The notes under the pieces are model-generated. The model ran no database searches. It had not been told where the DNA came from and saw only the letters and a list, made by a program, of their open reading frames with translations. Shown here one piece after another: positions 1 to 19,131 of a stretch of DNA of 46,577 nucleotides. The stretch lies in the NCBI GenBank assembly GCA_046757765.1, contig JBHHYX010000002.1, positions 1 to 46,577 of the forward strand, written 5' to 3'. A program made the translations under genes and the position numbers. The first letter of the stretch is position 1. The number at the start of each line of letters is the position of its first letter. The DNA is from Acidobacteriota bacterium (GTDB taxonomy: Bacteria > Acidobacteriota > UBA6911 > RPQK01 > JBHHYX01).

Positions 1-93
1 ATGGTGTGAAGATGAGATGCCAAAATGTGAAGTTATTCTTGCGCGAGCCCTTAGGTCGAGGAGACGTGGGGTTGGGCAACGCAGCCAGCAGGG
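1..93. repeat. Partial copy of interspersed repeat family A at the window edge
   Basis: nt 3-50 are near-identical (2 mismatches by eye) to 46314-46361. nt 55-93 (gtcgaggag...gggcaacgcagccagc) resemble the core of the copies at 22990-23176 and 27078-27262. Confidence 0.6.
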
Positions 94-159
94 ATGATCC
101 CGGCTCCGCGGTGGACGGCCCATGAGAAGTACGGGATAAGCAGAGGGACCGGGAAAAAC

Positions 160-1164
160 ATGAAATGGAAAAGCGGATGGCTGTTGATGTTCACTTTGAC
201 GGCGGGCGCGGGGACTTCCAGCAGCCCCGCCGGCCCCAGGAAGGATCTCCCTCCGGAGTTTGTTCAACTCCTGCCAAGAGGCGCTATCTCTGCGATAGTG
301 AATCCGAAATTCGTCACCGCCCAGAAAGCGAAGATCCGTCAGGAGTCCTGGGTTCTGGGTGTTGTGGTTGACGGACAGGCGCGCGCCTACAGCCTCAACC
401 TGTTGAATTCACATGAAGTTGTCAACGACAAGGTCAATGACACCTCCTTTGCGGCAGTTTGGTGACCCTTGGCCAACACGGCCGTCGTGTACAGCCGCAG
501 CTACGCGGGGAAGGATCTCAGATTCGAGCCCTCTGGCGGCCTGCTCCATAGCGCTCTGGTGATGCAGGACCAGCAGACCGACACCTACTGGTCGATCATG
601 ACGGGGGATGCGATCGGCGGAAAAATGAAAGGCACGCCTCTCAGGGAACTGCCGGTGGGTGCCAAGGCCCGGTGGGGTGACTGGGTCAAGCGGCACCCTG
701 ACACCCTGGTCCTCTCCGTCAACGGTGAAGAAGACGAATCCTCCAATCCGTATGAACAATACTTCCGATCAGATAAGGGGTTTGGTAACGCCAAGGCCCG
801 GGACAAACGCTTGCGGACGAAGACTCCGGTCTACACTTTTCGCATTGGCAAAAAGACCTATGCCGTCCCCTTCCGAGCGATTGAAGGGGGCGCCGCATTC
901 AAGCTGAAGGAGACCACCGTCTTCCTTTATCGTCCCAAAAACGTTCCCATGTTTCATTCCACGGCGGCTTTTCAGGCCCTGGGCGGAGAGTTCAAAAAAC
1001 GGGACGGAGTATGGTACTACACCCAGAGCGGAGGCCGCTTCGATGCCCGGAGCCAAAGATTCGAGGGTGGAGATTCCGCCCAGCCGCGGCCCCTGAAGGG
1101 ATTCGACACCTTCTGGTATACGTGGAGCCTGACCAATCCCCAAACAGAGATCCTGGGTCGATAG
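160..1164 (+). CDS. DUF3179-family protein containing one in-frame TGA (463-465): candidate selenocysteine protein, alternatively a pseudogene
   Basis: ORFs 94..465 and 469..1164 are in the same frame and are separated only by TGA 463-465. The read-through product ...YSLNLLNSHEVVNDKVNDTSFAAVW-[TGA]-PLANTAVVYSR...DTYWS... is a continuous DUF3179-like sequence. ATG 160 is preceded by GAGGGA and followed by a hydrophobic signal-like segment (WLLMFTLTAGAG). Confidence 0.6.
486..507 (+). promoter_or_regulatory. Candidate SECIS-like hairpin downstream of the in-frame UGA
   Basis: CGUGUA (486-491) pairs with UACGCG (502-507), giving 6 bp including one G-U. The loop is 10 nt and contains G. The stem begins 20 nt after the UGA. 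The hairpin is weak and was not tested with a model. Confidence 0.25.
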
Positions 1165-1207
1165 TTCCCATTTCAAAACTCATAGGCTCTCCAGAGGAAA
1201 GAATGTC

Positions 1208-1666
1208 GTGAAGTTGACCCATTTGGACTCGCGGGGCCGGGCCCGCATGGTTGACATCGGGGAGAAGCCACTGGTCAAGAGATGGGCCAGGGCCGAAGGT
1301 AAGCTGTTTGTCTCGCCCTCGACTCTGGAGCTGGTCGCCAGGGCGGCACTGCCGAAGGGCAATCCCTTCGAGGCAGCGCGCATCGCCGGCATTCAGGCGG
1401 CTAAAGAGACCAGCCGCTTGATTCCCCTCTGCCACACTTTGAGCCTGGACTACGTTGACGTGGAGATCGAGGTGGCTGAGAGCGCCTTTCAGATACGCAG
1501 CAGTGTCGCTTGCCGTTGGGCCACGGGCGTTGAGATGGAGGCGTTGACGGCTGTTACGGTGGCGGCCTTGGCTCTATACGACATGTGCAAGGCGGTCGAC
1601 AAAGGAATGCGGCTGGGAGAAGTCCGGCTGGTGGAGAAAGCCAAAGGCGAAGAGCCCGATAAATGA
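1208..1666 (+). CDS. moaC: Cyclic pyranopterin monophosphate synthase MoaC
   Basis: The 152-aa product carries typical MoaC blocks: MVDIGEKP, KGNPFEAARIAGIQAAKETSRLIPLCH and EMEALTAVTVAALALYDMCKA. The start is GTG. Confidence 0.9.
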   Translation: MKLTHLDSRGRARMVDIGEKPLVKRWARAEGKLFVSPSTLELVARAALPKGNPFEAARIAGIQAAKETSRLIPLCHTLSLDYVDVEIEVAESAFQIRSSVACRWATGVEMEALTAVTVAALALYDMCKAVDKGMRLGEVRLVEKAKGEEPDK

Positions 1667-4949: not shown

Positions 4950-5660
4950 TTGGAAGAGCCGCTCATTCGCACAATCGAACTGTGGAAGACCTACCAGATG
5001 GGCTCCGAAGCGATCCATGCGCTGCATAACGTGAGCTTCGACATATACCGCAATGAGTATATCGCGATCATGGGCCCTTCGGGATCAGGCAAATCGACTC
5101 TGATGAATCTGATTGGTTGCCTGGACACGGCCACCCAGGGTGAATACTACCTGAACGGGAAACTTGTCAGCGACATGGAGGATGACGAGTTGGCCTACAT
5201 TCGAAATCAGGAAATCGGATTTGTCTTTCAGACTTTCAACTTGCTGGCTCGAGCTTCCGCCCTCCAGAACGTCGAATTGCCCTTGATCTACGCGGGCATT
5301 CCGGCCGGAGAACGGCGCCGGCTGGCCCGAAGGGCGCTGGAGATGGTGGAATTGGGCGACCGCATCACGCACCGTCCCAATGAACTCTCAGGCGGCCAGC
5401 GCCAGCGCGTCGCGATAGCCCGCGCCCTGGTCAATCAGCCTTCCATCATTCTGGCTGACGAGCCCACAGGCAATCTGGACTCCAGAACCGGGGACGAAAT
5501 CATGGCCTTGATTGAGAAACTCCACGGCGAGGGCAACACGGTTGTTCTGGTGACCCATGAAGCGACCATCGCCGAGCATGCCGATCGAGTGATTCATCTG
5601 CGTGACGGCAGGATTGAGCGTGACGAGTCTCTCCGGCAATCCCGCGTTGCCCCCGCCTGA
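4950..5660 (+). CDS. ABC transporter ATP-binding protein (MacB/LolD type)
   Basis: Walker [10 protein letters not shown], signature [15 protein letters not shown], Walker [13 protein letters not shown] and H-loop VTHE are present. The start is TTG, 2 nt after the adaptor gene. Confidence 0.9.
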
Positions 5661-6012
5661 GCCACCGTGAACAGCACCCTCAGTCCGCCGCGACAGGAGA
5701 GCCGCGAAATCCCACTCCAGCCCCGGGTCAAGTGACAATCGTATCCTTTCTGACGAACCAGGAAGACGTGTACAGCTTCGATATCACCCGCGTCGACACC
5801 GGGTCGGGCGCCCAGTGGCAAACAGTGCTTCGACTTGAGGTCGTCTTTCTCATCTCTGCCCTGGCCGAGAACGGCCCAAATGGCGCTTGCACGCCTTCCG
5901 AGGATCCCCCACACCCCTCATAGCCGGCCACCCGCCTCTCGACCGGAAGCGTGGCAGTCTCCGACTCCGTTCTTCCGGACCTGAGCCAAGCCTGTGGTAA
6001 ATTGACTTCTCC

Positions 6013-7263
6013 ATGATTGTCGTAAACGCAGCATCGCAGATGGTGGCCCTGGGGGCGGTCCTGGTTGTACAGACTCTTTACATGATCGTGGTCGCCCGCG
6101 TCCTGGGTCCGGAGGACTTTGGACGCTTTTCCTTCGCCTGGACAATTGCCCAGATCTTGTTGATCGGCGGGGACCTGGGTCTGCACAATACGGCCTTGCG
6201 CAAGATCTCCACTCATCCCGAGCGCTCGGCAGCTTTCTGCAAGACCTTCTTTGGGCTGAAAATGGCGCTGAGCGCGATCCTTTTTCTGATCGCGGTCCTC
6301 ATCTCTCTGGTCATCCGGGAAACGCTCGAAACGCGGATCGCGCTGCTGCTCTTTGGAGCGGGAATGTTCTTCCATTCCCTCAGCCTGGCCATCAACATCG
6401 TCTTTCAGTCTCACGGCAAGCTCTACTGGGCCAGCTTGAATGTCCTGACCCTCTTCCTGGCCCAGTTCCTGTTTGGGATTCTCCTTCTCTGGTGGGGTGC
6501 TCGCCTGATAGGTCTGGGAGTGGCCTATCTGTCGGCCGCCTGTTTGAGTCTGGCTCTCAACACTTTCATTTTCCAAAGGACAATCCACCCTCTGCGCCTG
6601 GAGCGAACGGCAACCTGGAGAAGATTCGCAAAGGAGTCGTTTCCCGTGGGTTTGGGGACCCTGTTCCACACCGTCTCCGCACGTGTGGGTGTGGCTCTGC
6701 TGACCTTGTTATCCGGTCCTTACCAGGCGGGTATCTTCGCCGCCGCCAACAGGATCACGTTGTCGATGTCGAATGTGCCCATCGGTATCTTCAGCGCCAT
6801 CTTGCCGGTGATGGCTTCCCATCAAACCGACCGGGCACCGGTGAAGCGGCTGTTTCGTAAGTCTTTGACAGTGATGATCGGCATCTCGGTTGTGCTTTCG
6901 ATCGGGTTCTTCCTCCTGGCCGAGCCATTGGTTCAATTTCTATACGGCCCGGCCTACCAGCTTTCTGTGGGCAACCTGCAGGTTCTCACCTGGTGTCTGA
7001 TACCCGTTTTTGTGGGAATGTCCTTCAGCCACGTGATTCTCAGTCAGAGCCGCCTGGTGGCGAGACTACCGGTGGTGACGGGTGCGGCCATGGTGGCAAA
7101 TCTGGGCGCCAATTCGGTGCTGATTCCCTGGATGGGGAGCCGGGGCGCTGCTTTCAGCGTCCTTCTCACCGAGACGGTTCTGGCGGTTGGATACGCCCTG
7201 GCGGTCAGAAGTTTTCTCTTTTCGCCCGTCTCTCCTCGCCCCCCCACCTCCGGCCACTCTTAG
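6013..7263 (+). CDS. Polysaccharide biosynthesis / Wzx-like (MOP superfamily) flippase
   Basis: The 416-aa product is strongly hydrophobic with about 12 helices. Its N-terminal [13 protein letters not shown] block is typical of oligosaccharide flippase family proteins. Confidence 0.7.
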
Positions 7264-7387
7264 AGTCTCTGGGACTCCGACCCGCGTGGTCCCGTTTTCA
7301 ACTATAATCTTCGGAGAGAGGGCAGAGTTTGATAAGCTGACCCTCTGCCGTTTGACAAAACAACATCTTGGAAAGGAGAGTACAGCC

Positions 7388-8251
7388 ATGAGCGACATCA
7401 GCAGCCGTGGGTACGCGAACCCCGGAGTACTGGTTTCTACCGATTGGGTTGCCGCCCATCAGAGTGACTCCAACGTCCGCATAGTCGAGTCCAATGAAGA
7501 TCCTTTGCTTTACAGTTCGGGACACATCCCAGGGTCGGTCGAGGTTGACTGGGCGCGCGACTTGAATCATCCGATTCGCAGAGACTACCTGGACCCGGAG
7601 GCCTTCCAGCGCCTCGTCACTCGGTTGGGAATCTCCCCCGACACCACCATCGTGTTCTATGGGGACAAAAATAACTGGTGGGCCACCTACGCCTTTTGGG
7701 TCTTTCAGCTCTATGGCCACACTCAGGCGCGAGTCATGGATGGTGGGCGCTTGAAGTGGGAAAAGGAAGGCCGCGAAATGACACGGGACGTGCCCTCTTA
7801 TCCAGAGAGTCAATACTCATCGCCTGAACGCGACGACTCCAGAATCCGTGTTTTTCGCGACCAGGTTCGGGAGCATGTTGAGGCGAGGTTACCTCTGGTG
7901 GATGTGCGTAGCCCCGAGGAATACAGCGGCGAGCGGCTGCACATGCCAGACTACCCCAACGAGGGCGCCTTGAGAGGGGGGCACATTCCGCGAGCTGCAA
8001 ATATCCCCTGGGCCCGAGCCGTGAATCCGGAGGACGGCACCTTCAAGACCGCGGCAGATCTCAAAGCCATCTATAGCGAGGAAAACGGGCTGAAGCCCGA
8101 CGATGATGTGGTGGTTTACTGCCGCATCGGCGAGCGAAGCAGCCACACCTGGTTCGTTCTGAGTTACTTGCTGGGATTTGATCGCGTCCGCAACTACGAT
8201 GGCAGCTGGACCGAATGGGGCAACTTGGTCAACGTCCCCGTTGAGCGGTAG
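7388..8251 (+). CDS. sseA: Thiosulfate/3-mercaptopyruvate sulfurtransferase (tandem rhodanese)
   Basis: It has two rhodanese domains and the active-site loop [19 protein letters not shown] lies upstream of ATG 7388. The ORF is open from 7187. Confidence 0.9.
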
Positions 8252-8263
8252 TGAGCAGAACAA

Positions 8264-8728
8264 ATGGCCGAGTACCCCGCCAAGCTTGAGAGGATTCTGG
8301 AGAACTTCCGACTCCTCCAGGATCGGTCGCAGCGGATCGAAGTCTTGATCAGCATGGCGGATCGTTTCAAGACGGTCCCCGGTCACATTGCCGAGCGCCC
8401 TTTTCCGGAAGAGAACCGCGTAAAAAGTTGTGAATCCGAAGCTTACGTTTTCACGGAAGAACTGCCGGATCACACGCTTCGGTTCCATTTCGCGGTGGAA
8501 AACCCACAGGGTATTTCGGCCATGGCGATTGCTGTACTTCTGGACAGAGGACTGTCGGGTCAGCCCCTGGACCAGGTTGCCAAAGTTCCATACGACATCG
8601 TTTTCGAGATCTTCGGGAACGAACTGTCGACAGGCAAGGGGCTTGGTCTGACGGGAATTGTGTCTATGGTTCAGCATGCCGCCAAGCGTCAGGCCTCCGA
8701 GCTTCAATCAGTCCCGCATCCGTCGTGA
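8264..8728 (+). CDS. sufE: SufE-like sulfur acceptor protein
   Basis: The product is of SufE-domain size and carries the conserved Cys context VKSCESEAYVF. The gene follows the rhodanese gene directly. Confidence 0.8.
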   Translation: MAEYPAKLERILENFRLLQDRSQRIEVLISMADRFKTVPGHIAERPFPEENRVKSCESEAYVFTEELPDHTLRFHFAVENPQGISAMAIAVLLDRGLSGQPLDQVAKVPYDIVFEIFGNELSTGKGLGLTGIVSMVQHAAKRQASELQSVPHPS

Positions 8729-8888: not shown

Positions 8889-10835
8889 ATGAGCGTCTCT
8901 GGAAATCCGTATCTCAGCCGGGTCATGATTCGAAATCCTTTGGATTTCTTTGGCAGGCGCCGAGAGCTACAGCGCATTTTTTCCCGCATTGGCGCCGAGC
9001 GCCCGCAGAGCGTCTCGATTGTGGGCGAGCGCCGAATTGGGAAATCCTCGCTGCTCTACCATCTCAGCTGTCCCGAGATTCGCCAGAGATACCTGGGAGA
9101 AAAGACGTCGCTTCGGATGGTCTTCCTGGATTTTCAACAACTGAGAGACATGGGTATCGCTGGCTTCTTCCAGCACCTGTTCGAGAAGATTACCCTTGTC
9201 GATCCTGAGGTCAAGATCGCGGTCCCACCGGGCTATCGAGCCTTTCAGAGGATTCTCGAAGACTTCCAAAAGGAAGAAAAGGGACTCGTTCTCCTGTTGG
9301 ATGAATTCGATGCCGTCACCTCCAATCCGGTTTTCACCACCGAGTTCTATTCGTTCCTGCGGTCGGCAGCCAATCACTACCCGGCGGCCTACGTCACCAC
9401 CTCACAGACTGAGCTGCAACGACTCTGCCATTCCTCAGAGGTTTCGGATTCTCCATTCTTCAACATCTTCACCAATCTTCATCTCAGGTGCTTCGAGCGG
9501 GAAGAGGCCCTGGAGATGATCGCCCGACGTTCCTCGGAACAAGGAGTGCCGCTGATCCGGTTCGCAGACGAGATTCTGGAGTTGGCTGGACAGTTTCCCC
9601 TTTTTCTTCAAATCGCTTGTTGCCTCTATTTCGACAAATGTGCCGAAAGCTGCGAGGCCCGACCGGACCCGGATGAAATCCGGGAGCAGTTTCTCGAGGA
9701 AGCGGGACCCCACTTTGAGTATTTCTGGGAACACGTCTCGCTTGAAACACGTGTCCTGCTCAGAAGGGTTCTTGGCGGCGAAAGGCCGAGGCCGGACGAG
9801 CTGCATTTGTGCCGCAAGCTGAAACGGGAAGGATATTTGATCGACCGGCCGGATGGACTGGCCATCTTCTCCTCGGCATTTGGCCATCACATCGCCACAC
9901 TGGAAAGCTCGGCCACTCGGCGAACCCTTCATACTCCTTTACTTTCTGAGCCGGAAGACCCTCTCTCCTCGGGAACCCAGGTGAACCAGTATCGACTTCT
10001 CTCCCGGGCGGGGGAAGGAGGCATGGGAGTGATCTACCGAGCTGAGGATTGCGCTCTCACCAGGAACGTGGCTCTGAAATTCATACAGCCAGGGTGTCTT
10101 CGCGATGAAACCGCCCGCAAGAGATTTCGCTCCGAGGCCCGCCTGGCAGCTTCCCTGAATCACCCCGCGATCACCTCAGTCTACGAGTACTTCGAAGTCG
10201 ACGGCCAGGTGGTCTTGGTGATGGAATGGATCGATGGTGAAACGCTCAGGCAACGTATCCGAGACCAGGGTCCGGTAGAGTGGCCTGTGCTCACCGCCTG
10301 GTTGATGGAGGTTTGCGATGGTCTGGAGGCAGCCCACGCCCAGGGCATCATTCACCGTGACATCAAATCCTCAAATCTCATGATCACTCCTTCCAACCAT
10401 ATAAAAATCATGGATTTTGGGCTAGCCAAGCGGTGGAGCGATGAGACTCTGCACACTGCGACATCTCAACTGACCGAGAAGGGGGGCTTGCTGGGAACCC
10501 TCAACTACATGTCCCCCGAGCAGATCCGGGGCGAAGCCTTGGATTGCCGGAGCGATCTTTTTTCGCTGGGCGTGGTTTTCTTTGAAGCGTTGACGGGGCG
10601 ATTACCCTTCGGCAGGCAAACACCAGCGGCACAGATGCAGGCTATTCTTCACGAACCGCAGCCTCACCTGGCTCTCTACCAGATCGAGCAAGCGCAACGC
10701 TTGGATACAATTGTCCGAAGGCTGTTGGAAAAGCGTCCCCGGGATCGCTATCTCAGCGCGGCCAGGTTAAAGGAAGACCTGGTCAATCTGTCGCGCGGGC
10801 GAAAGAGGGTGCTGACCTGGTTGCGGGGGAGATAG
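8889..10835 (+). CDS. P-loop (STAND/AAA_16-like) NTPase fused to a C-terminal Hanks-type Ser/Thr protein kinase
   Basis: N-terminal part: FFGRRRELQRI...VSIVGERRIGKSSLL (Walker A) and LVLLLDEFD (Walker B). C-terminal part from about nt 9987: GEGGMGVIYRA, VALK, HRDIKSSN, DFG and SPE kinase subdomains. Confidence 0.85.
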   Translation: MSVSGNPYLSRVMIRNPLDFFGRRRELQRIFSRIGAERPQSVSIVGERRIGKSSLLYHLSCPEIRQRYLGEKTSLRMVFLDFQQLRDMGIAGFFQHLFEKITLVDPEVKIAVPPGYRAFQRILEDFQKEEKGLVLLLDEFDAVTSNPVFTTEFYSFLRSAANHYPAAYVTTSQTELQRLCHSSEVSDSPFFNIFTNLHLRCFEREEALEMIARRSSEQGVPLIRFADEILELAGQFPLFLQIACCLYFDKCAESCEARPDPDEIREQFLEEAGPHFEYFWEHVSLETRVLLRRVLGGERPRPDELHLCRKLKREGYLIDRPDGLAIFSSAFGHHIATLESSATRRTLHTPLLSEPEDPLSSGTQVNQYRLLSRAGEGGMGVIYRAEDCALTRNVALKFIQPGCLRDETARKRFRSEARLAASLNHPAITSVYEYFEVDGQVVLVMEWIDGETLRQRIRDQGPVEWPVLTAWLMEVCDGLEAAHAQGIIHRDIKSSNLMITPSNHIKIMDFGLAKRWSDETLHTATSQLTEKGGLLGTLNYMSPEQIRGEALDCRSDLFSLGVVFFEALTGRLPFGRQTPAAQMQAILHEPQPHLALYQIEQAQRLDTIVRRLLEKRPRDRYLSAARLKEDLVNLSRGRKRVLTWLRGR

Positions 10836-10838
10836 CGG

Positions 10839-13800
10839 CTAGACTGCGAGAAGGTACCCTTTGGCCGGAGTGCCGGTGATCCGGGAGAGCGCGAACACGT
10901 ACCATTGGACCTGTCTCTCGTAGTGGGTCCTTCTGGCGTCGAGATTCGCATCGGTCTTGAAATCCAGGACAATCCAACGACCCTGCTCCAGAAAGGTGAG
11001 GTCAATGGACCCTTCCAGAGTGCGGCCGTCCTCAAGGTTCAGGAGCAGGGGGAACTCGCGGTGGCAGTGGTTTGAAGCTCGTGCCCGCTGCAGCAGGGGA
11101 TGGCGCAGGGTGGCCTTAACGGAGTCCACGGCTGCCCGGACTTCTTCCCTCGTCGCCTGCATCACTCGGCCGTGGTAGCGGGCCAGAGAGAGGATCTCCG
11201 TTGCCCCAGCGGCGAGGTCGACATCTCTCAAGACTGTATGGACCAGGGTTCCAAAGCGCCGCCCGGAGGGGCGTTGCTCCGGTCGTTCCAGAATCTCCGC
11301 CTCAATGCTGCCAGACAGATTCTCCGGCAAAGCGGTCGCTTCGCTGGCTGTAAAGACTCGAAACTCCGGCTCCCCTCCCCGGTCCAGAGCCGCGGCTCGC
11401 CGTTCCTTCCACTCCAGATACTGTTGGAGTCCCTGGTCGGCCGTCTTTCTCCCCTTGTCTTCACTGAGAACCTCTTCCTCGCGCAAGCCGAAATGTCCCT
11501 CCGCCCCCAGGTTCAAGACCGCAGGATCCCACCAGACCACCTGATGCCCGCCTGCCTGGGGCCGGTGTCGACCCGGCTTAATGGAGGGCGGCTGAGAACC
11601 CGGGACCCGGCTCGGGCCCGCCAAGATCGTCGTTTCGCCAAAGTCGGGGCACCCGGTTGCGGGCTGGGATCCCCGTCGATCCCGTTGGGCGGGATAGAGA
11701 GCGGGACTGAGCGGGTCCACCCAGCCGTTCAGGGGAGCGTCACCCACGGCGGGGACCACCAGAATGTCGCGCGCGCGCGTGGCGGCTACATAGGCGATTC
11801 GGATTCCCTCGGCTTCATCGCGCCGGTGCTCCAGACCCGCATTCTGCTTGAGGTCGAGTGGCGAGCACCCCAGGACTCGAGTCGCGCACAGTCCCCGCTC
11901 CAGGTCCACGAACTTGTCGGGTTCGGCCTGGGCCAGCCTGGCCGTCATGTCGGCCAGGATGACGACGGGGAACTCGAGTCCCTTGGCGGCATGCAGCGTC
12001 ATGATGCGGACTCCTTCGGCGCCTTCTTCCAGAACCGGGGATTCCACCGATCGGACTTTCTCGGCTTCCTCCTCGAGTCGTTCCACAAAACCCCTATAGG
12101 AGATCCCTCCGCCGATCTCGAATCGCCTCGCCATGTCGCAGACCCTTTGGACATTTGCCAGCACCTGGTCGCCGGCCGGCCTGAGGGCAAAACCGGCGTG
12201 GGCTCGAGTGAAATCCAGGATCTCATTCACCGTTCGCACAATGGGCCGGTGATTTCGACGGCGGTGCAGATCGGCCAGCAGGCCCAAAGCCTCGGACACC
12301 GGAAGAAACGTCTCATCCAGATCTTCCGGTAGTCGCCGAAAGGGGTGAAGGGGGCCGATTTCCTTTCGAAAACGAAGCAGGACGCTGTCGGCAACTGCAA
12401 AAAGAGATCCCTTCAGGGTGGCAAAGACTGAGAGTTCATCATCCGGCCACTCAACGGCGGTCAGTGCCGCGCGCAGGGTCCCCACTTCATCACGCCGGTG
12501 GAAGGTCCGTGAGCCCACCAGAAGGTGGGGAACGGAGCGCACGTCCAGGGCACGAATGTAGGGGCGTGTCACGTCACGTCCATAGGACATGAAGCGACGG
12601 AAAAGAATGCAGACGTGCCTGGGCAGAAGATCCATCTCCTGGCGGGGATCTTCCGGATTCCTGACCTTCCAGCCGCTTTCGTTGAGCAGCCACTCAACGA
12701 AGGACGCCACCGTCTCGGGAAGACACTCCTCCACCGCCCGGCGGGTGATCCTGAACCAGCCGTAGGGCCGAGGAGCCGGGAGGGCGATCAGCGCGGGATG
12801 GTGGGTGCTGGGCGGCCCCTGCTCCAACAGAGGAACGTAGTCCGGCTGCCCGCTCTCCACGTCCCCATTCATGGCCTTCTCGAAAGCGGCGTTGACCGCC
12901 TGTTGAAGAGGTCGGACGGACCGAAAATTCCGCTGCAAATAGAGAAGATTCACACCTGAGGCAGTGAGGATTTTCTTAACCTCCTGATAAAGGAGCACAT
13001 CGGCGCGCCGAAAACGGTAGATCGACTGCTTGGGGTCGCCCACCAGGAAAAGCTTTCCTGGAACCACCCGGATGTTCCGCCAGTCACTGACGCTGGGGTC
13101 GTCCGCCGCCAGCAACAGCAGAATCTCGGACTGCAGCGGGTCGGTGTCCTGAAACTCATCGACAAAAAGGTGGGTCAACTTCTTCTGGAAGTCCCGACGG
13201 ACGGAAGGATTGTATCGAACCAGGTCGCGGGCTTTGAGGAGCAGGTCCACAAAATCGAGGCCGCCGACCCTGCGTTTCAGCTCCCCGTACTCTGCCACCA
13301 GTTGCTGAAACTCGTCCTGAAGGGCCGCCGCCAGGTCCGCGTCGGCCCGCCGCTTGAAATGCTCCAGTGCTTGAACCAGGTTCTCGCGTTCCCGCACCAT
13401 TTCTTCTCGCGCCACGCCATGGGCAAAAAAGCCTCTCCCTTTTCTTTTGTCCCGACTGAGTTCGCTGGTCAGGTTCAGGAGCCGGGCCTCGAGGTCATTG
13501 TAGTCCCGCTCTCGCGTCGATTCCGCCTTTTCCAGATCCCTGGTGAAAAAGCGTGCCGGACGTAAGGCCATCCTCAGATAATCCCTTTCATAGGAGCACT
13601 TTGCACTCTTCTCAGCCAGGGCGAAGACGTCAGGAAGGAGAGCATCAATTTCCGATTGTCTGTCGAAATCCTCCCGTCCCCAGGGAGCCGCAAAATCCCG
13701 CCATTCGGCAAAGATCCAGCCAGCGTCGCGAATCCGCTCCAAAGGAGAAACCGGGCGAAAGGATTTCCAGGTGGCGATACGGCTGAGGGCGCGGGCGAGG

Positions 13801-15456: not shown

Positions 15457-15865
15457 GTGTCTGTTCTCCTTTCTTGCTTGTCCCATCCGGCTGGGCGGCC
15501 TTTGCCCCTCGGCCGTCGCCGGGCTGATCCTGACGCGACTCCACATAAGTTTTCAATCGATCCAGCCGGACCTGCCAGAATGTACGATAGGGTCCCAACC
15601 AGTGATCAATGTCGGCCAGGGGATCGGGGTTGAGATGGTAGAAGCGATTGCGGCCCTGCCGGTGTTCTCCCACCAGCCGCGCCTTGCGAAGGAGTCGAAG
15701 GTGTTTGGATATAGCCGGCCGGCTGACTGAAAAACCGGAGGCGATCTCCTTGACCGGCCGGCTGCCGCTGCGCAGCAAATTCAGGATGGCGCGACGAGTG
15801 GGATCCGCTATGGCTCGAAAAACCGTGTCTTCCCGGTGCGAGGCTTGCGCCAGTCCAACTTTCAT
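15440..15865 (-). CDS. ArsR/SmtB-family transcriptional regulator
   Basis: FRAIADPTRRAILNLL...PVKEIASGFSVSRPAISKHLRLLRKARLV is a winged-helix HTH_20 motif. GGAGCAGGAA precedes ATG 15865. An alternative ATG lies at 15889. Confidence 0.9.
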   Translation of the reverse strand: MKVGLAQASHREDTVFRAIADPTRRAILNLLRSGSRPVKEIASGFSVSRPAISKHLRLLRKARLVGEHRQGRNRFYHLNPDPLADIDHWLGPYRTFWQVRLDRLKTYVESRQDQPGDGRGAKAAQPDGTSKKGEQTHDSEH

Positions 15866-15919
15866 TTCCTGCTCCACGCTCCCATTCAACCGATCCGGCA
15901 GCCGATCAGAAAATAATCA

Positions 15920-15935
15920 GTAACCATATGGTTAC
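15920..15935. promoter_or_regulatory. Perfect 16-bp palindrome, probable ArsR-type operator
   Basis: GTAACCATATGGTTAC lies in an AT-rich patch 31-55 bp upstream of the arsR start candidates. An extra GTAAC half-site is at 15941. Confidence 0.45.
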
Positions 15936-16074
15936 CTATTGTAACTGGTTTGGAGGAGAGCGGTCAAGGTCTATTCTGGCTCACCCACCACTTGCCGGTC
16001 TGAGGGCGAACTCGATAGAGGTCGCCTGGCAGTGGGAGAACTCGTCACCTCGATCCAGGTCCTTTGAGGCTCCG

Positions 16075-16325
16075 GCTCGGTATCGGTATCGCTGTCGCTA
16101 TCCGTGATCCGACATCATGCGCATTGCTCCCCACCATCGACACTGGTGGGGTAGTCGGGTCTTCACCGGTATCGGAATCGGGTTCGCAATCGCTATCGCC
16201 GTCGATTGAACTATGGGCCCCAAGCGGTGCATTTTCTCAGGCGTGGGATGATCTGTGATATTGAGCCAGATCTTTTGGGAGTCGCGATCGGGATCGGTAA
16301 TCGACATCATGCCCATTCCTGCCTG
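16075..16325. repeat. Three degenerate copies of a repeat with 6-nt (NNNATC) periodicity
   Basis: Copies at about 16078-16130, 16167-16209 and 16283-16325. Example: GGTATC GGAATC GGGTTC GCAATC GCTATC GCCGTC. Two copies end in GACATCATGC(G/C)CATT. The reading frame is not conserved between copies. Confidence 0.5.
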
Positions 16326-16478
16326 CCATTGCAGTCCAGGTCGATAGCAATGACCGTCTAGTCGGGGAGTGTCACTGCAGAGCCAGATGGAGACCCTCGT
16401 CGGAGAAAGTTGTCGTCGGGCCTCCCGGCGATTCTGGTCTGAGCCCCAAGGGCGGATGACCCGGGCGATCGAAGCGGG

Positions 16479-17543
16479 CTATTCCCGGGGGTCTCTTGAG
16501 TGAGCGCTTTCCCGCAGCGCTTCCTGAAGAGCCCGGGCGACCAATTGATTTCCCCGGGCCGTAATGTGCGTCGTGAACAACCGGGCGTACTCTTTCGGGT
16601 CCCGCCTCTTGATTGCCATCAAATCCTCTCGCAGATCAACGACTTGTACCCGTTCCGAACGGACGCAGTGCAGCAGACGTGCGATCACCTCGAGGGAAGA
16701 GGATGAAGGATTCTTTTCGTACTGAATCAAAAGGACAAGATGAATCGCCCTCTGATTTGCGATTCCTGCCATTTGGCGGACTAATAAGCAGGCGATTTCT
16801 TCTCCTCGGGTGTTGACCGTCCGGCTCAGGGACCCTTCCAGCCAGTAGCTTGGAAAGGCCTTTCGCATCAGCTTGTAAAAGAAAAAACTGTAACCCGTCA
16901 CCTCCTTGAAGGTGCCCAAATCGAGGCCGGTCGGCGGCGGCACAGGCTGATTGTGCAACTGAAGGCGTCCCTCCTCAATCTGAAAGTAGGGCTTTCCTGC
17001 CCCGGAACGCTGTGACAGTTCGCAGCGGCGAACATCGTCGGAGATGAGACTGAGGATCACGAGGTCCGGTGCATACTTGCCAATCAATGCTTTGGCCCGC
17101 AGGCAAGTCTGGTCGAAGCCGTATCCGAACACCCCGGCGTTGATCACTGGTGTCCCCAGCAGCTGCTCAAGCGCTGCCGGCCAGGTCTCGCGGTCCGAGA
17201 CCTCATCACCAAAAGTGAAGGAATCCCCTGCCGCTATGACTAAGGGCGAATCCGGGAGATCCCCTTGTTCCTGCTCGCGGCCATTGGAGCGGAGGCCATC
17301 GGCGGTGATCGTGACCTTTTTCCCCCACAAGGCCCCCTCGGGCCATGACCCGGGTCTCGGAATCCAGCCCAGTTCAGCATCGTACCGAGCCGGGTAAGCC
17401 TCCCTGACATAGCGTAGCTCTGCCACCAGAAAGTTGGCCAAACGCCATTCCCACTTCCAGAGCCGGGCAGTAGTTTCCAGGATTCCGAAGGTCAGCAACA
17501 GAGTGGTCAGAGAGAGCGAGATGTGGGTGAGGATTCTCTTCAT
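16479..17543 (-). CDS. SGNH/GDSL-family hydrolase with N-terminal membrane anchor
   Basis: A TM anchor (ILTHISLSLTTLLLTFGIL) is followed by block I VIAAGDSFTFGDE. ATG 17543 lies 23 nt downstream of the stop of the preceding gene. The longer ORF reaching 17972 would overlap that gene. Confidence 0.7.
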   Translation of the reverse strand: MKRILTHISLSLTTLLLTFGILETTARLWKWEWRLANFLVAELRYVREAYPARYDAELGWIPRPGSWPEGALWGKKVTITADGLRSNGREQEQGDLPDSPLVIAAGDSFTFGDEVSDRETWPAALEQLLGTPVINAGVFGYGFDQTCLRAKALIGKYAPDLVILSLISDDVRRCELSQRSGAGKPYFQIEEGRLQLHNQPVPPPTGLDLGTFKEVTGYSFFFYKLMRKAFPSYWLEGSLSRTVNTRGEEIACLLVRQMAGIANQRAIHLVLLIQYEKNPSSSSLEVIARLLHCVRSERVQVVDLREDLMAIKRRDPKEYARLFTTHITARGNQLVARALQEALRESAHSRDPRE

Positions 17544-17566
17544 TCTGCTCGAGCGGAACCTCAGGG

Positions 17567-19057
17567 TCAAAAGAGTGCGACCCGGAAAATGCGAGCCATG
17601 ATCAGCAGAGCGCTTAGAGAGGTAAAGACAGCCAGACTGCCCCAGGCCAGCCAGGTTTCGATCCTGGAGGGATAAAAGAGCCTGTCTTCTTTGGGGATGA
17701 CGGCGAAACAGTAGTAGAGATTGAGGAAAAAAATGACCGGTGCCACGAAAAATGCCAATGCCGAAGCCACCAGCACCAGCCACACTGGCCTTGGTGCTCC
17801 TGCGATAATCGCCACCGCGGCGAAGAGCGAAAAGAGCATCGTCATCCTGTAGATATTGTATTCGGAATACCAGGTTCTTTTCTGTTTCGGCGTGAGATCT
17901 TCCGTCGAGGTTCCGAGCAGCGCCGTTGACCTGAACAGGTTTCGGCAACAGGCGCCGACCACCCTGGGCCAACCGTCAAAATAGTTGAAGGCGGTCGAAT
18001 AGGTGGCGGCAAAAGAACCGAGCAGAAACAAGGGCATCATCCAGGGGCTGGCCTGGGTGAAAATCTTTGCAATCTGACCGATCACCTCTCGGCCTTTGAC
18101 TTCGCTCCCAGGGATCCAAACCGCCGCCAGCAGCAGAAATATACAAGCGATCAGGAACGATATGACGTGCCCGTGCCGGAAATCCCACAGACCAATGATG
18201 AACCACCTTCTACAATAGTGGCGGGCGCGAGGAGGTAGTCGCAGGGTATCCACGGCAAGGTCCCTCTTACTTGAAGTCAGGGGGTTGAAGGAACGGGCGA
18301 GACCCATCTCTTCAAGGTGCTCTCTGATGCGGGCCATGCCAGCCTTCTTTGCCTTTCCCCACTCCGAAGCCTGCAGGGAGACGTCGATCCCGGTGGGCAG
18401 CAACCCCAGGAACCCGGCCACGATCAGCCAGGAGCCAGCAGGGGTCTCAAACTGGAAGAAATGAGCCAGGGACGAAAGCGGAGCGGGTTCGACCAGGTAG
18501 ATGGCCACGGCTGAAAGGCAAAGCACGCCGGCTGAAATCTTCGCCACCAGTTCGACTGCCAGATACTTTCCGCTGAAGAGGATCCCCACCGATAGGGTCC
18601 CCAGCAGGAACCCATAGAGAGAAAGACTCAGCTGAAGTCCCATGAACTGGGAGAAGAAATAGAACAAAACGGCGGAGGCAGCGACCAGTCTTCCCGCCTG
18701 GCCAAGCGCGCACTGGAAGAGGGTGGTGATCAGGACATACCAGAGAGGCCACTTTTTCCAAGCGGTCGAGTAAGCGTCCAAAAGGCTCTTCCCGGTGGCA
18801 TGAGTGAACCGGAAAGCCATTTCGAAACCATAGTACTTGAATAAGTATGCGACCGGGATGCACCAGAGCAGAGCGTACCCAAACCGCGCTCCCGCAACGG
18901 GAGCCGTAATGAGATGGCTGGTCCCGATGCCTGTCATCATCAGGATGACGCCGGGGCCAAAATGCTTCATGAGACCGGCCAGATTGACCTTTGGAATCTC
19001 GAGAGCCTCGAGTTCTTCTATTCCACGAGGGCGACTGGGGAGTGCTGCTTCCGCCAT
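17567..19057 (-). CDS. NRAMP-like (APC superfamily) membrane transporter lacking the canonical DPGN motif
   Basis: The product has about 11-12 TM helices. Its N-terminal block FGPGVILMMTGIGTSHLITAPVAGARFGYALLW aligns with NRAMP FLGPG...DPGN...GA.FGY.LLW, but GTSH replaces DPGN. Confidence 0.6.
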   Translation of the reverse strand: MAEAALPSRPRGIEELEALEIPKVNLAGLMKHFGPGVILMMTGIGTSHLITAPVAGARFGYALLWCIPVAYLFKYYGFEMAFRFTHATGKSLLDAYSTAWKKWPLWYVLITTLFQCALGQAGRLVAASAVLFYFFSQFMGLQLSLSLYGFLLGTLSVGILFSGKYLAVELVAKISAGVLCLSAVAIYLVEPAPLSSLAHFFQFETPAGSWLIVAGFLGLLPTGIDVSLQASEWGKAKKAGMARIREHLEEMGLARSFNPLTSSKRDLAVDTLRLPPRARHYCRRWFIIGLWDFRHGHVISFLIACIFLLLAAVWIPGSEVKGREVIGQIAKIFTQASPWMMPLFLLGSFAATYSTAFNYFDGWPRVVGACCRNLFRSTALLGTSTEDLTPKQKRTWYSEYNIYRMTMLFSLFAAVAIIAGAPRPVWLVLVASALAFFVAPVIFFLNLYYCFAVIPKEDRLFYPSRIETWLAWGSLAVFTSLSALLIMARIFRVALF

Positions 19058-19131
19058 GCTGGAACTCTTCCGCCTACCGAATCTCCGGGCAATCACGCGA
19101 ATCCCGGCCTGGTTGAATGGCCACCTGGCGC

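Follow-up and report, generated by a model that had tools for sequence, protein, structure and literature searches.

A DUF3179 gene interrupted by TGA

At the beginning of the DNA analyzed here, a stretch of 46,577 nt from an Acidobacteriota bacterium (hereafter the window), two ORFs share one frame and are set apart by a single TGA codon, and the locus raises the question whether this TGA ends a gene or encodes selenocysteine (Sec) within it. Nucleotides 160-1164 very probably specify one exported DUF3179-domain selenoprotein, which lacks annotation and belongs to an already catalogued selenoprotein family. Three other explanations, a pseudogene, read-through without Sec and the synthesis of two separate products, share among them the small probability left.

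The complete DUF3179 selenoprotein gene (160..1164, plus strand) is made up of 334 codons, Sec included, and ends at a TAG (1162-1164), up to which the TGA at 463-465 is the sole interruption of the frame. The context of the latter is tgg TGA ccc ttg gcc aac acg, or AAVW-TGA-PLAN in protein terms. A preliminary description of this DNA had reported two same-frame ORFs, 94..465 and 469..1164, split by this TGA only; the observation holds, and no further lesions were found. The start has been moved from the ATG at 94 to the ATG at 160, the likely initiation codon, which gives a signal-peptide-like N-terminus (MKWKSGWLLMFTLTAGAG..., beginning MKWKSGWLLMF...). An independent Logan assembly of the run SRR29324609 is 100% identical to the window over 1470 nt (window 26-1495), TGA included.

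Translated with X at the TGA, the read-through product was aligned to the PF11376 profile (Pfam DUF3179), as had been suggested, and matches it from end to end (profile positions 3-292 of 292; 184.6 bits for a cutoff of 27; E = 3.7e-54). The gathering threshold is exceeded, and the product is a member of the family. In tblastn searches, the matches found in 34 genomes are each a single match spanning the TGA.

TGA is the stop codon of 13 of the 24 Pfam-supported genes in the window, including moaC, the ABC ATPase and zwf, the three genes for which an ordinary use of TGA had been noted before. The codon is therefore not reassigned genome-wide, and global TGA recoding is ruled out. Other ORF pairs interrupted by TGA in the window are GC-rich shadow-frame noise, and no second convincing selenoprotein candidate was found among them.

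Conservation of the TGA codon and its Cys counterparts

A genome scan, carried out on one genome per GTDB species, yielded 50 loci. The 34 closest (L001-L034) feature identities of 44-62%, except for the divergent L032 (33%), and all carry TGA in the aligned column, as does the L059 locus, so that the codon at 463-465 (plus strand; AAVW-U-PLAN) is shared by 35 of 35 close orthologous loci. The carriers are labelled as Acidobacteriota, Vicinamibacteria, Thermoanaerobaculia, Calditrichaceae, Pirellulaceae/Planctomycetales (Planctomycetes), Krumholzibacteriota, Gemmatimonadota, Multivoradales and Entotheonella, at least six bacterial lineages overall. The DNA of a short gene call residing in a 4.3-Mb contig (P0109) reads AAVW-TGA-PLAN. 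In a read-through alignment of the 36 Sec-form genes, window included, TGA occupies one column in 36/36. The sequences share with the window a mean identity of 49% over the 95 residues upstream and of 48.5% downstream, and both halves are hence under the same constraint; the about 230 well-conserved open codons attributed at first to the downstream part are 232, as conserved as the upstream ones. A conserved UGA in conserved flanks, as expected of a bacterial selenoprotein, is accordingly found.

A protein search returned 406 homologues, and the motif column was inspected in the best 120 of them. Among these, 56 full-length proteins carry Cys at the TGA column, mostly as VW-C-PLAN, and two carry Ser. 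CPLAN is found in 54/58 full-length relatives in the same set, and Ala at +3 is therefore common to the whole subfamily. The codon is TGT or TGC in all the seven subfamily Cys forms examined as DNA, and the distant DUF3179 genes L035-L048 have either TGC or TGT, inside CPLCG or CPLTG. In the window protein a HEVVND block precedes the motif, which is U-P-L-A (463..474, plus strand), the counterpart of the canonical DUF3179 C-P-L-C, with Sec for the first Cys and Ala for the resolving Cys (or Thr). The alignment of the TGA with the first conserved Cys of DUF3179 and the change of the second Cys to Ala (canonical CPLCG), both proposed in the preliminary description, are thus confirmed on full-length homologues, and with regard to the choice between TGA and Cys in orthologues, which it wished to see examined, TGA is found in the 35 close loci and Cys codons in the seven subfamily forms. 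The Sec/Cys pair found in bacterial selenoproteins is therefore present here, with 56 Cys-form homologues, seven of them confirmed at the codon level. The pairing of TGA with Cys is the classical signature of Sec (PMC1976440).

A SECIS-like hairpin downstream of the UGA

A SECIS-like hairpin (479..497, plus strand) lies just 3' of the UGA, inside the coding sequence. The 5' arm (479-485, CGGCCGU) and the 3' arm (491-497, ACAGCCG) form a 7-bp stem with one C.A mismatch at 483/493, closed by a 5-nt loop (486-490, CGUGU). Counted from the UGA, the stem starts after 13 nt and the loop after 20 nt. In the minimal fdhF element of E. coli the stem begins 11 nt after the UGA, and in the bacterial SECIS consensus (bSECISearch) the loop is found 16-37 nt after it. 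The hairpin is similar to bacterial SECIS elements of the E. coli fdhF type in location, in the spacing of both stem and loop, and in the G found early in the loop. It differs from them because it lacks an evident bulged U, and because the stem is short (7 bp), often with one C.A mismatch; moreover, no curated Rfam model matches it, and SelB binding is putative.

The helix recurs in the folded orthologues, and is selected by RNAalifold on an ungapped alignment of the 35 Sec loci. In these loci 91.8% of the cells in the 7-bp helix are paired, vs. 24-58% in controls with the 3' partners shifted by 1-3 columns; compensatory changes occur at three pairs (e.g., C-G in 27 sequences, U-A in 7), and none of 500 shuffles equalled the observed helix values. 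The compensating changes are mostly synonymous, Ala GCC/GCU lying opposite to Gly GGC or Ser AGC, and Thr being ACG in 28/34 sequences. Sec forms have 0-1 mismatches and a mean energy of -8.7 kcal/mol (-8.4 kcal/mol for the window hairpin). In the seven subfamily Cys forms 2-3 of the 7 pairs are broken, and the fixed-structure energies average about -2.4 kcal/mol, a value obtained by arithmetic from the per-locus figures, as the printed group mean (-1.03) takes in the distant L043. The Cys forms serve here as a control, since the peptide that they encode (NTAVVY.R or NAGVVY.R) is nearly the same as in the Sec forms.

The mismatch at 483/493 is found in the window only, among 35 sequences. At the pair next to it, 15/35 have a single C.A mismatch, and one mismatch is thus evidently tolerated. 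All hairpin variants have a G within the first two loop positions, but the conservation of the loop is confounded with that of the protein, since a Val codon, itself conserved, begins with the invariant G and U. A conserved G in the apical loop of bacterial SECIS elements is mentioned in PMC1976440.

A stem-loop as expected of a bacterial SECIS is therefore found at 479-497, without an Rfam match. In Rfam scans no model matched over the whole window at gathering thresholds, nor in a permissive scan of 440-560. The hairpin 479-497, which Sec forms keep and which has decayed in the Cys forms, is best described as a putative SECIS. A different hairpin (486-507) had been singled out as lying at a SECIS-compatible distance. 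It is part of the minimum-energy fold of the window, yet this fold is no more stable than shuffles (z = +0.57) and the hairpin is not conserved; the wrong hairpin had thus been chosen.

From these data we infer SelB-dependent decoding. When the ribosome reaches the UGA at 463-465, the mRNA hairpin 479-497 (7-bp stem, CGUGU loop with G at position 2) would act as a bacterial SECIS and recruit SelB-GTP-Sec-tRNA(Sec), Sec would be inserted, and termination averted. No tRNA genes, hence no tRNA-Sec, were found in the 46.6-kb window, and selA, selB and selD are absent from its about 30 annotated ORFs, a result uninformative for a piece of 46 kb. The Sec-decoding capacity of the host (selA, selB, selC, selD) is itself deduced.

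The alternative that survives best, though improbable, is that the UGA is read through or recoded without Sec, by a near-cognate Trp or Cys tRNA, or by Cys-tRNA(Sec) at selenium limitation, to give a full-length protein which is not a selenoprotein. In its favor, delivery of Cys-tRNA(Sec) by SelB can occur under limiting selenium, and the Sec machinery of this genome is a deduction only. It does not account for a SECIS-like hairpin found at the expected spacing and conserved in TGA forms only, nor for the fact that other genes of the window end normally in TGA. The TGA/Cys pairing, the classical Sec signature in PMC1976440, and the view of DUF3179 as a selenoprotein family, held by NCBI and by two reviews (see below), equally favor the insertion of Sec.

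The encoded protein

The N-terminus of the Sec-containing product has the features of a signal peptide (MKWKSGWLLMFTLTAGAGTSS; 160..222, plus strand), with a basic N-region, a hydrophobic core and a C-region of small residues, the boundary being approximate. Export is therefore probable on sequence grounds, and the peptide would send the 334-residue product out of the cytoplasm. Homology starts only after about residue 25-31 of the product. An AlphaFold2 model was made, from a 56-sequence alignment, of P0002, which among full-length Cys forms is the closest, with 57% identity to the window protein. The model (pLDDT 91.5, pTM 0.87) is almost entirely beta-strand; the N-terminal 30 residues are a low-confidence helix outside the domain, and the Cys lies where a strand (95-102) ends, before the PLAN turn and a further strand (107-112). 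No relatives of the window protein were found in the PDB by sequence, and nothing meaningful was retrieved by a Foldseek search of the P0002 model against the PDB (best E = 0.012, TM 0.20 or less). The predicted fold is all-beta, not thioredoxin-like, has no PDB relative, and provides no functional lead.

By homology to the modelled Cys form, Sec would terminate a beta-strand (AAVW-U-PLAN) of an all-beta domain, in the place taken by the first Cys of CPLC. Invariant residues which may surround it are E86, N89, D90, R113, D137 and T140. The window protein contains no Cys. No Cys is present in the aligned region of 18/36 Sec forms, and in most Cys forms, among the best 120 of 406 homologues, the motif Cys is the only one of the mature part. 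With Ala at the second Cys and no Cys elsewhere, Sec would be a lone selenol centre; an intramolecular selenenylsulfide would be impossible, unlike in UxxC proteins, because the second Cys is missing. Most plausibly, Sec would act by itself as a catalyst, redox or nucleophilic, or as a metal/chalcogen ligand, and not as half of a selenenylsulfide pair.

More tentatively, and with the balance of probability against it, the U/C-P-L-A-N clade could be a functionally distinct branch of DUF3179, an exported single selenol/thiol enzyme with no resolving Cys and an all-beta fold without a solved relative, widespread in Acidobacteriota and neighbours. If so, its chemistry could differ from that of UxxC/T forms, e.g., a periplasmic one-residue redox or chalcogen-transfer activity, and the clade may be one of the more broadly distributed selenoproteins in soil Acidobacteriota, systematically split by gene callers. 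For work on DUF3179 function the clade is a sensible target, owing to its UxxA motif, to the lack of other Cys residues, and to a confident all-beta model without neighbours in the PDB.

About 57 of the best 120 of 406 homologues are proteins of ~225 aa beginning a few codons after the Sec column, as LANTAVVY..., VY.R... or MY.R..., i.e., at internal Leu, Val or Met codons. Such calls are what gene callers yield at an internal TGA, and as about half of the best 120 of 406 start past the Sec codon, the mis-annotation of Sec forms as short proteins is systematic. Beside the short calls there is usually a separate N-terminal fragment of about 90-105 aa (e.g., L058 162-440, L059 9659-9979).

Taken at face value, these calls would mean that translation ends at the UGA (463-465), releasing an N-terminal fragment, and is re-initiated at the TTG at 469, to give a second protein of 231 aa. 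This explanation is even less probable than read-through without Sec. The downstream ORF is routinely output by gene callers (P0001 and about 57 others), and TTG, GTG or ATG codons are found soon after the TGA. Yet the called starts vary among orthologues (LANT..., VY.R, MY.R) and are no conserved initiation sites, but Leu/Val codons inside a beta-strand that is itself conserved; across the site, flanked by the strands 95-102 and 107-112, the domain is continuous both in Pfam and in the AlphaFold model of P0002; and the downstream piece would have no signal peptide. The least tenable explanation, with hardly any probability left, is that of a pseudogene, a Cys-form DUF3179 gene inactivated when TGY recently mutated to the nonsense codon TGA: the subfamily does include Cys-form homologues (up to 57% identity) and Sec machinery is not visible within the window, but the finding of TGA in 35/35 other close orthologous loci of several phyla effectively refutes it, and against it speak also the absence of further lesions, the equal conservation of the 232 codons downstream and of the upstream ones, and the maintenance of a TGA-form-specific hairpin through synonymous-site covariation.

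A selenoprotein, the reading preferred to a pseudogene in the preliminary description, is consequently retained, on account of the TGA/Cys pair, the TGA in 35/35 loci, the covarying Sec-specific hairpin, the intact downstream frame, and the use of TGA as a stop in other genes.

Relation to catalogued DUF3179 selenoproteins

The protein had been proposed as a candidate new selenoprotein, and DUF3179 had not been counted among the established bacterial families. Neither statement stands. An entry 'DUF3179 domain-containing protein, pfam11376, UxxC/T' is present in the tables of prokaryotic selenoprotein families of two reviews (PMC9312934, 2022; PMC13188914, 2026), which both credit Zhang & Gladyshev 2007 (NAR 35:4952), a study on Olavius algarvensis symbionts. 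Six new families, including OS_HP1 and OS_HP2, were described in that study by means of Sec/Cys pairs and SECIS-like hairpins; that DUF3179 is one of the six is an attribution made by the reviews, according to which the DUF3179 selenoprotein was first reported in a marine deltaproteobacterial symbiont. The name 'DUF3179 domain-containing (seleno)protein' is moreover given by NCBI to Cys-form members of the same subfamily (P0030, P0069). As no NCBIfam model matches the window protein, the name probably comes from the naming of the Pfam model by NCBI. In a literature search on DUF3179, no assigned function and no report of selenium incorporation were found for any member.

The window gene shares with the catalogued DUF3179 selenoproteins a full-length Pfam domain, Sec at the position equivalent to the first Cys of CxxC, the occurrence of Cys-form homologues, and a stem-loop just downstream of the UGA. 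In contrast to the UxxC/T of the catalogue, the window and 34 of the 35 other Sec loci have U-P-L-A, the comparison being with the listed motif alone; U-P-L-C, as in the listed UxxC, is found among the 35 only in L032 (Entotheonella). The U-P-L-A clade also differs in distribution, as it resides mainly in Acidobacteriota and neighbouring phyla, whereas the form first reported is from a deltaproteobacterial symbiont. Canonical Cys-form DUF3179 proteins (e.g., Photobacterium, Burkholderiales, Spirochaetota; L035-L048) have the domain in common with the window, as well as the HEVVND block and the place of the first Cys. They are 26-40% identical to it over the aligned stretches, feature TGC/TGT in place of TGA and mostly Cys or Thr at +3, and lack the SECIS-like hairpin (6/7 pairs are broken in L043).

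What is new is modest, a U-P-L-A motif instead of the listed UxxC/T in a protein otherwise devoid of Cys, both being differences from the catalogue entry. No selenoprotein family is added, and the understanding of Sec decoding is unchanged. The practical value is mainly one of annotation, as the systematic mis-annotation affects what is probably an exported selenoprotein, widespread in Acidobacteriota and related phyla.

Genes in the vicinity

No neighbours are conserved across the 35 Sec loci beyond the DUF3179 gene itself, and the presence of moaC and moeA next to the window gene is therefore incidental. Among the Cys-form loci, carA (CPSase small chain) is found directly before DUF3179 in three of seven (L051 1371-3499, L053 1876-4017, L057 1-1993), and in L057 the Cys-form gene is located between carA and carB. 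In two of the seven (L052 4503-4912, minus strand; L056 1448-1879, plus strand), a DUF547 gene is found close to that of the Cys-form DUF3179 protein. The L008 locus, from an Acidobacteria MAG, hosts a second ORF clustering with DUF3179 ORFs, probably a paralogue, at about 5305-6441, ~2.1-3.2 kb downstream of the Sec codon.

In L059, on a 4.3-Mb contig, the Sec-form DUF3179 gene is adjoined by a gene (10770-11075, plus strand) encoding a 101-aa PF01035 protein (methylated-DNA-protein-cysteine methyltransferase DNA-binding domain), a family also found among the selenoprotein families of the two reviews (PMC9312934, PMC13188914). A CsoR-like repressor and HMA P-type ATPase pair (15775-18361, plus strand) is found ~5 kb beyond the PF01035 gene.

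In the window, a two-domain rhodanese sulfurtransferase (7187-8251, plus strand) is directly upstream of a SufE-like sulfur acceptor (8264-8728, plus strand). The pair, located ~6 kb from the selenoprotein gene, suggests sulfur, conceivably selenium, trafficking. It is followed by a gene (8889-10835, plus strand) encoding a 648-aa protein, in which an N-terminal nSTAND2 STAND NTPase (E = 9e-48) is fused to a C-terminal Ser/Thr protein kinase (E = 4e-49), an unusual architecture of signalling, or possibly defence, type. On the minus strand, a 509-aa ORF (17567-19096) matches the Nramp profile in its first half only (3-168 of 357), and is overlapped in another frame by a 497-aa ORF with no Pfam match (16479-17972); the arrangement (16479-19096) could reflect a frameshift, or a divergent C-terminal Nramp half.
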